Part shown: positions 63,050 to 63,180 of the stretch, piece by piece
Layout of the letters: each line of letters begins with the position of its first letter
How positions within the stretch are numbered: position 1 is the first letter of the stretch
Position numbers and translations under genes: made by a program
Source: an uncultured Bacilli bacterium
Lineage (GTDB): Bacteria > Bacillota_I > Bacilli_A > RF39 > UBA660
NCBI GenBank assembly: GCA_934101575.1
Contig: CAKORJ010000001.1
Location: 402,994-466,993, forward strand
DNA: 64,000 nucleotides
Direction of reading: 5' to 3'
The notes under the pieces: generated by a model
Database searches by the model: none
The model's input: the letters and a program-made list of their open reading frames with translations, nothing else
What the model was told of the DNA's origin: nothing

Positions 63050-63180
63050 GGCGAGAGGAATTGTTGGAATTAGCATTACCATTGTTACTGCCTGAGTTAA
63101 ACGCCCCGGCATTTGTACCATTGTTATAGTTACCACCACGTTTGAACCAAGGGTTATTCGAGTTCGCAAGGTAAGAGTTA
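63050..63180 (-). repeat. DGR template repeat (TR)
   Basis: 91 nt (63050-63140) align to 63909-63999 with 13 mismatches, 11 of them at TR adenines on the minus strand. The TR reading frame is Asn-codon rich (NYNNGTNAGAFNSGSNNGNANSNN). The 5' boundary is approximate because the VR is cut by the window edge. Confidence 0.8.

Follow-up and report, generated by a model that had tools for sequence, protein, structure and literature searches.

We analysed a 64-kb stretch of DNA from an uncultured Bacilli bacterium (contig CAKORJ010000001.1, positions 402,994 to 466,993; hereafter the window, in whose numbering coordinates are given unless a relative is named). One end of the window carries a diversity-generating retroelement (DGR). 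Its components are arranged on the minus strand in the following order: a target gene with a C-terminal variable repeat (VR), the stop codon of that gene within a hairpin, a terminator-like hairpin, a promoter-like region, the MutS-like gene msl, the template repeat (TR), a spacer RNA, avd and the gene of a reverse transcriptase (RT). Judged from the DNA, the locus has the features by which a DGR is recognised, and its layout is the known MSL-containing "Architecture D". We read it as an intact chromosomal DGR of the MSL/Avd type, from a low-G+C human-gut Bacilli bacterium, in which adenine-mutagenic homing took place in the past and the VR has since been stable in all sampled strains; we give this reading a probability of about 0.88.

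The locus was compared with related loci (numbered L001 onwards). L001 (Hadza), L002 and L003 are human-gut metagenome contigs retrieved by looking up the exact RT protein, and a scan of reference genomes returned a single relative, L004, a metagenome-assembled genome labelled 'uncultured Bacilli bacterium'. Scans of JGI metagenomes with the 3' flank of the VR and with RT peptide patterns gave no match; the relevant contigs are in ENA and Logan.

Template and variable repeats

Two direct copies are present in the window, at 63045-63140 and 63904-63999, separated by 859 nt. The first-pass annotation of this DNA had proposed them as a TR/VR pair, and the pair proved to be real. A search with a 36-nt pattern (up to 3 mismatches) returned only these two matches in the 64-kb window, with 0 expected, and blastn with the TR as query picked up nothing in the window beyond the pair except 10-17-mers expected by chance, so that the repeats belong to no dispersed family there. 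The TR occupies 63050-63183 (minus strand; 134 nt, 40 adenines): its proposed start was right, and its end lies 3 nt further than had been proposed. The VR is cut by the end of the window, which holds only its 3' 92 nt (63909-64000, minus strand). The full VR is 134 nt long and would extend to ~64042, outside the window; its sequence was taken from L001 (8526-8659), a contig with 100% identity to the window across the 12,450 nt that the two share.

On the minus strand, the visible VR core and the TR disagree at 13 positions. Eleven of these are adenines in the TR (seven A>T and four A>G), and the sole non-A changes are the adjacent G>T and T>C of a single codon (agt>atc), exactly as first annotated. 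The last visible base of the window is a twelfth A>G. Over the 92 visible nt, 12/28 adenines were changed against 2/64 other bases (Fisher p=5e-6). In the full-length comparison, too, the substitutions were not spread over the four bases: of 20 mismatches, 17 fall on adenines of the TR, with nine A>T, eight A>G and no A>C, and the other three are T>G, G>T and T>C, which for 40 adenines among 134 nt gives a Fisher p of 3.9e-8.

When the TR is read in the frame of the VR, 15 of its 44 codons are AAY, and these contain, at their first two positions, 30 of the 40 adenines. The early statement that the changes lie 'all in Asn codons' is therefore nearly, though not strictly, correct: in the visible part 10 of the 11 adenine changes are in AAY codons and the remaining one is a silent ACA>ACG, and at full length 13 of the 17 are in AAY codons, three in one AAA (Lys) codon and one in the ACA. 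The AAA codon has become GTG in the present VR, and the TR of L004 has AAT in its place.

Homology between TR and VR starts at CGATAAC and stops immediately after TTCCTCTCGCC, a sharp boundary at a shared GC-rich block that had been noticed at the outset. This block (63909-63919, minus strand, at the 3' end of the VR; 63050-63060 at the 3' end of the TR) is free of adenine, has 64% G+C in a window of 27.6% G+C and is kept in relatives as TC(C/T)TCTCGC. It resembles an initiation of mutagenic homing (IMH) sequence, and its inferred function is borrowed by analogy from work on BPP-1 (PMC3240598).

The adenine bias recurs in the relatives: 22/22 mismatches at TR adenines in L008, 19/21 in L004 and 23/25 in L009. 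At non-adenine sites each VR matches its own TR. VR1 has 3 non-A mismatches to TR1 (the TR of the window) against 15 to TR4 (the TR type of L004), and VR4 has 2 to TR4 against 17 to TR1. The adenine-specific pair, together with the adjacent RT and Avd, the A-free 3' block and the hairpin described below, bears out the interpretation as the fingerprint of DGR mutagenic homing.

Reverse transcriptase, Avd and genomic setting

The RT (338 aa; 61551-62567, minus strand) matches RVT_1 with E=1.6e-20. RTs of the DGR clade are recognised by (I/L/V)GxxxSQ in motif 4 and a YxDD box; the window RT contains PIGNYSSQYF, so that its motif 4 reads IGNYSSQ, and its catalytic box is YMDD. Its best match among solved structures was 8ub7_A (328 aa), with E=2.7e-45 over RT residues 5-321. 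Retron and group II RTs gave 3e-17 or weaker, and Drt3 RTs were also far behind 8ub7_A. Motifs and structure match thus both assign the protein, on sequence grounds, to the DGR RTs. No close relative of this RT was found in phages, every phage match being below 41% identity.

The avd gene (accessory variability determinant; 111 aa; 62548-62883, minus strand) overlaps the start of the RT gene by 20 nt. Its product matches Pfam bAvd with 39.3 bits (E=1e-9) and NCBIfam DivGenRetAVD with E=1.2e-11, under the cut-off of the latter, and the database record of an identical protein carries bAvd. A single-sequence search of the Protein Data Bank (PDB) with Avd gave no significant match. The TR is non-coding and lies between msl and avd, with the RT start 482 nt downstream. 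It lies between msl and avd-RT in every relative, and RT, Avd, MSL and the gene order are kept down to 58% RT identity.

The genes around the element are housekeeping genes: rlmN, a PP2C phosphatase gene, a PASTA kinase gene (prkC), rsgA and rpe. Directly downstream of the RT gene lies a gene for an Rpn-family PD-(D/E)XK nuclease/putative transposase (60434-61399, minus strand). It is probably not a component of the DGR, because both L005 and L006 keep it, irrespective of what has become of their cassettes.

The target gene and its 3' end

The target is a 1232-aa open reading frame (ORF; L001 4978-8676) in which the VR ends 6 codons ahead of the stop and encodes the C-terminus ...RGGYYYYGTFAGAFCSGIDNGNANSYSSSR. 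A hairpin, TAACACC-GTAA-GGTGTTA (63885-63902, minus strand), begins 7 nt past the VR and holds the TAA stop codon of the target (63892-63894) in its loop. L004, L005, L006 and L008 also have a hairpin at this position, with differing loops, and L009 has an unrelated longer one there. By analogy, the hairpin is the counterpart of the hairpin/cruciform needed for BPP-1 retrohoming. Further downstream lies an AT-rich inverted repeat, TCTTATAAAATTAC / GTAATTTTATAAGA, with a run of T behind it (63829-63868, minus strand); judged from its sequence, it is likely the intrinsic terminator of the target gene. A terminator scan gave no site on the minus (cassette) strand and a single match on the plus strand; it missed the inverted repeat because it demands three G-C pairs.

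A Pfam search of the 1232-aa target returned no match, and the shorter orthologous target of L004 reached 21.5 bits to FGE-sulfatase against a gathering score of 23.3. The family is large, with 3267 homologues at E<1e-5, all ending in ...SSRLIITP. Among 43 members, the positions derived from TR codons whose first or second base is A were hypervariable, with an entropy of 2.86 bits against 1.20 elsewhere (p=1.5e-7). The fold was modelled on a 657-aa homologue (77% identical over the query region), relative to which the target has ~640 extra N-terminal residues. The model has a mean pLDDT (predicted local distance difference test) of 71.9, falling to ~50-60 over the last 40 residues, which form the VR segment. 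It matched the DGR variable protein TaqVP (5vf4) with E=1e-3 and probability 1.0, a match to be read with the low confidence of the VR segment in mind. Residues ~360-518 of the model are predicted to form a beta-sandwich of ~160 aa, inserted in the lectin-like domain and resembling the carbohydrate-binding modules CBM4, CBM35 and CBM61.

A 674-aa paralogue, P0015, encoded on the same 706-kb contig, was considered as a second target of the TR and rejected: its C-terminus is constant in all variants, it differs from the TR at positions not encoded by adenine and by an indel, and it lies outside the window.

A structured spacer RNA between TR and avd

The 160 nt between TR and avd (62890-63049, minus strand) form a structured spacer RNA with three hairpins and an invariant UU(A/G)UUCCU stretch. 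The segment 62902-63027 matched Rfam RT-14 (RF02921), one of the RNA motifs located beside RT genes (Weinberg et al. 2017), with 35.9 bits, against a gathering score of 48.1. RT-14 matches were found at the same place in L004 (36.2 bits) and L008 (33 bits), and all three sequences align to the model over its full length (positions 1-144 of 144); no such match was detected in the more distant L009, L011 and L012. These matches are lost in Rfam scans of whole loci, through E-value scaling and filters, and recovered in narrow scans. We describe the spacer RNA as RT-14-like; with scores under the gathering threshold, membership in RF02921 is not established.

The spacer was aligned across seven relatives of 58-100% RT identity, and a covariance model, R1, was built from the alignment. 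R1 gave one match per DGR-bearing locus, one match in the 64-kb window (62890-63049) and none in L005, from which the cassette is deleted. In the model-based alignment 97.4% of the cells are paired and 10 of 27 pairs show compensatory changes on both sides, figures that come from an alignment fitted to the structure and from seven distinct sequences only. The covariation score was reached by 0/500 shuffles and collapsed in slid controls. All three hairpins are backed by covariation, the middle one occurring as four different sequences, every one of which pairs, and the UUUAUUCCU stretch is common to the window spacer and RT-14. A long-range GAACU-AGUUC pairing proposed by RNAalifold was rejected in favour of the local hairpin, which pairs in 7/7 sequences through its four variants.

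An 11-nt deletion, TTCAAGTTTTA, was observed in L003 at ~9600 (window ~62975-62985), in an otherwise identical contig. It takes out part of UUUAUUCCU, which is invariant in all seven relatives, and represents either a loss-of-function allele that arose naturally or an artefact of assembly. An RNA between TR and RT has a precedent in RT-10 of BPP-1, and other RT motifs have been speculated to serve DGRs (Weinberg et al. 2017).

The MutS-like gene and its upstream region

The msl gene (63221-63631, minus strand) encodes a 136-aa MutS-like protein matching Pfam MutS_I with 29.9 bits (gathering score 20.6). Its AlphaFold model (pLDDT 87.4) has the fold of MutS domain I with a C-terminal helical extension, and a search with this predicted fold returned domain I of MutS/MSH chains for all of the top 50 PDB matches; a single-sequence PDB search found nothing significant, so that the fold search was required. 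The motif GDFYE of MutS corresponds to GKFYR in MSL, with the Phe retained and the Glu replaced by Arg. A msl gene also adjoins the TR in L004, L008, L009, L012 and L016. The protein of the window is thus an MSL-type DGR accessory, a MutS domain I homologue encoded beside avd.

Upstream of msl lies a promoter-like region (63640-63688, minus strand) with, in this order, TTGACA, a (TG)10 tract (63661-63681), TTATATTATAT and GGAGG. A sigma-70 scan was uninformative in this AT-rich DNA, with 24 sites against 27 expected. Where relatives have the tract, its position is unchanged, and its length or purity varies: it is (TG)10 in the window, L001-L003, L008 and L015, an interrupted 20 nt in L006, 12 nt in L004, L014 and L016-L019, and (GT)11 (22 nt) in L012, the RT of which is 58% identical. 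It is absent from L009, L010 and L013, and no length variation was seen within any one lineage. As far as its sequence goes, the tract may provide slipped-strand control of DGR expression or be a recombination hotspot.

Decay, possible recombination and turnover among relatives

The syntenic locus L005 has undergone a clean deletion of ~2.2 kb (L005 11830-11860; window equivalents ~61551-61608 and 63800) that removed msl, the TR, avd and most of the RT gene, leaving ~55 nt of the RT 3' end. The VR-like segment of its target is 68.6% identical to that of the window, against 93.5% over the remaining gene. In L004, avd (L004 6909-7244) has two in-frame stops, a TAG at codon 19 and a TAA at codon 52; the gene is intact in L016-L019, which have the same TR as L004. 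L006, with an RT 99% identical to that of the window, has a VR with 20 non-A differences from its own TR, and no msl gene was called in it.

A sister lineage (RT 85% identical) is represented by five contigs, which share one identical TR and carry two VR alleles. These alleles differ at 32 positions, 26 of them at TR adenines, and their flanks are 3.2% diverged. Upstream, at 727-3345 of L016/L017, an 872-aa paralogue ends in a VR-like segment (~3190-3325). This segment has 26 mismatches to the sister TR, 18 of them at TR adenines, and its equivalent in L004 is much more diverged; the DGR of the sister lineage may have two targets.

L014 combines the exact TR of the window with a VR identical to that of L016, the non-A mismatches of this VR numbering 18 to TR1 against 6 to TR4. 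The contig is a mosaic (1-1000), L016-type through the first ~100 nt of msl and window-type beyond, and is either a recombinant with the crossover in the 5' end of msl or an assembly chimera; the TR has not overwritten this VR. In L015 a short patch (2400-2600) is L016-type, at the same spot as the L014 junction (window ~63570-63631). Such mosaics indicate either a hotspot of recombination beside the (TG)n tract or chimeric assemblies. L015 also carries the VR of the window in a gene that is 94% identical. We rejected selection on the VR as the explanation: the differences in the gene are confined to a 5' block, and the VR-bearing segment was therefore shared by recombination.

An identical VR in the sampled strains of the lineage

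The first-pass annotation took the TR/VR pattern as a sign of recent activity, and this part of it was not supported. The VR is base-for-base identical in the window and in the three independent metagenome contigs L001, L002 and L003, and a single VR allele accounts for these, L015 and the TR1-derived members of the target protein cluster. The exact 1232-aa target was found on 34 contigs and the exact RT on 40. In the 90% cluster of the target, the VR peptide is shared by 5 of the 6 other members, the sixth, P0004 (from L005), having a VR that is not derived from TR1. No alternative TR1-derived VR allele was present in a collection of 15 billion proteins. VR variants at adenine positions among strains, by which ongoing mutagenic retrohoming would be recognised, were not found in the lineage of the window.

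L001 and L002 differ at 54 sites, all of them downstream of the RT gene (L001 11433-21017; window below ~61130). The 11.4 kb at L001 1-11432, with the target, the DGR and upstream type IV pilus-like genes (T2SSF and prepilin peptidase), are identical in L002. This distribution suggests that a recent recombination or sweep had its boundary close to the Rpn nuclease gene.

At one codon TR1 reads TAC, TR4 AAC and VR1 GAC, so that at least one of the three non-A mismatches looks like drift of the TR since the last homing. Moreover, the adenine-biased pattern survives in L004, whose avd is a pseudogene; the pattern therefore records past homing, not current activity. The two VR alleles under one TR in the sister lineage show that turnover is detectable by our approach once it has happened. 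Taken together, recent activity was not shown and the data lean to stasis: the present VR was written by a past homing event, and in this lineage the element is quiescent or else under tight regulation.

Discussion

From the parts observed at the locus and their order, the adenine-specific TR/VR differences and the covariation of the spacer, and by homology with BPP-1 for every biochemical step, we infer the following scheme. A complex of RT and Avd would bind the transcript that holds the TR and the spacer RNA, and the TR transcript would be reverse transcribed with random misincorporation opposite template adenines. The cDNA would then replace the VR, with the 3' junction in the A-free TTCCTCTCGCC block beside the hairpin and the 5' junction set by homology, so that up to 15 AAY (Asn) codons could be recoded in a presumed ligand-binding C-type-lectin-like domain of the 1232-aa surface protein. 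For the MutS-domain-I protein, a plausible site of action is the heteroduplex of cDNA and VR, dense in mismatches, which it might for instance protect from the mismatch repair of the host. Deletion of host mutS raises the retrohoming of msl-encoding DGRs of gut Bacteroides 5- to 10-fold, which by analogy makes an interaction of MSL with the heteroduplex a reasonable idea.

Several points weigh against an intact DGR with a long-stable VR. Neither cDNA nor VR heterogeneity was directly seen. Assemblies are consensus sequences and would mask minority VR variants or low-frequency diversification within a sample; moreover, the sampled strains are very close, with 99.6-100% identity and no more than 0.6% divergence, so that an identical VR speaks only weakly against a slow turnover. 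Of the 20 mismatches, three are at non-adenines. The Avd score is just under the bAvd gathering score of 40, and the identification of 8ub7, the best structure match of the RT, as the Bordetella bRT is presumptive. Finally, DGR templates usually avoid codons that mutagenesis can convert into stops, and the TR holds one: its AAA codon (63140-63142, minus strand) can give TAA, TAG or TGA.

An alternative is a DGR that is active now and has homed recently, with ongoing diversification and one dominant haplotype assembled per sample. The RT, avd and msl are all intact ORFs, the TR, the IMH-like block, the hairpin and the spacer RNA are intact, 85% of the mismatches are at adenines, and the sister lineage combines VR turnover with a constant TR. 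Gut DGRs can be active, and all-or-nothing reversion of heteroduplexes by MutS would keep parental VRs dominant. We nevertheless hold current activity to be unlikely, as every sampled contig of the lineage, from several studies, carries one VR, the protein collection yielded no other allele derived from TR1, the three non-A mismatches imply that drift has occurred after the last complete homing event, and in L014 the exact TR1 stands beside a foreign, TR4-derived VR that it has not overwritten. The opposite extreme, a relic in a decaying state across the species group that once diversified its target and is now non-functional and heading for loss, draws on the L005 cassette, of which only ~55 nt of the RT gene are left, the two stops in avd of L004 (set against the intact avd of L016), the 11-nt deletion in an invariant part of the L003 spacer and the VR of L006, with its 20 non-A differences and no msl called. 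We consider it improbable. In the window itself the ORFs and RNA elements are all intact, 40 contigs keep the exact RT protein, and the conservation of RT, Avd and MSL to 58% RT identity, in the same gene order, speaks for purifying selection.

In a further rival reading, the pair would have arisen by ordinary duplication or gene conversion, or would belong to a dispersed repeat family, and its adenine excess would be due to chance or to AT-biased mutation. Such a reading could appeal to the very AT-rich genome (27.6% G+C) and to the large paralogous family of the target, with its similar C-termini. The window, however, holds two copies only, the changes run from A to T/G, which is not the direction expected from AT-biased mutation, and the Fisher test gives p=3.9e-8; in addition, four independent relatives show the same bias, and the non-coding copy sits between msl and avd-RT in every relative. 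This explanation is effectively refuted. We thus retain an intact MSL/Avd-type DGR with past homing and a VR that has been stable since.

Two linked proposals are more speculative, and we regard them as quite unlikely: the (TG)n tract would be a slipped-strand switch that sets the expression of msl-TR-avd-RT, and the orphan Rfam motif RT-14 would be the spacer/primer RNA of MSL-type Bacilli DGRs. Under the first, the (TG)10 lineage (TTGACA to TATA-like spacings of 21, 23 and 26 nt) would be OFF, which would account for its fixed VR, and the lineage with the 12-nt tract (spacing 18 nt), in which VR turnover was seen, would be ON. The switch as formulated here is built on two lineages only.

With this locus, a well-resolved DGR of the MSL/Avd type is added from an uncultured lineage of gut Bacilli. 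Together with its relatives it forms a natural series for comparison, in which the cassette is intact or deleted, avd is a pseudogene, the spacer RNA has a deletion, or TR and VR are paired as in recombinants. As this series shows, an adenine-biased TR/VR pattern does not by itself date activity. The element also gives leads on the role of the MutS-domain-I accessory, on RT-14-like RNAs as DGR spacer RNAs and on a promoter dinucleotide repeat that would gate DGR expression.

Comparison with known systems

The kind of system is already known and the DGR paradigm is unchanged; two leads are modestly novel, namely the likeness of the spacer RNA to RT-14 and the (TG)n repeat of the msl promoter region. 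With BPP-1 (mtd-avd-TR-brt) the element shares an Avd-like protein, a TR of 134 nt, a VR at the 3' end of the target gene and an RT that matches the top solved structure, 8ub7_A, over its full length. It also shares TR-to-VR differences that are adenine-specific and concentrated in AAY codons, an A-free GC-rich 3' homology boundary and a nearby downstream hairpin with the stop codon in or next to it. It differs in being chromosomal, among housekeeping genes, whereas BPP-1 is in a phage, and in its order, target-msl-TR-spacer-avd-RT, with an extra MutS-like gene. The IMH-like block is 11 nt here, against (GC)14 plus 21 bp in BPP-1, and the hairpin loop is GTAA, varying among relatives, against GRNA.

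The target resembles TaqVP (5vf4) in having its VR at the extreme C-terminus, with the conserved ...SSRLIITP end, and the modelled homologue matches the TaqVP fold. In contrast to TaqVP, the lectin-like domain of the target family is predicted to carry the beta-sandwich insert of ~160 aa. TvpA and Mtd are further DGR variable proteins with the C-type-lectin fold. The spacer resembles RT-14 RNAs in its full-length alignment and in its location between TR and avd, and differs in its scores of 33-36 bits, under the 48.1 of the family.

The closest known layout is that of the MSL-containing DGRs (Architecture D; Legionella; Bacteroides Bfr/Bth/Bun). MSL was reported in 16 of 372 DGRs, always together with avd, with lengths of 112-283 aa (Wu et al. 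2018, PMC5758913). The element of the window likewise combines a 136-aa MutS-domain-I protein with avd, without an HRDC gene, and shares the human-gut habitat. It differs in its host, a low-G+C Bacilli lineage known from metagenomes only, and in its target, a protein of 1232 aa from a family without Pfam assignment.

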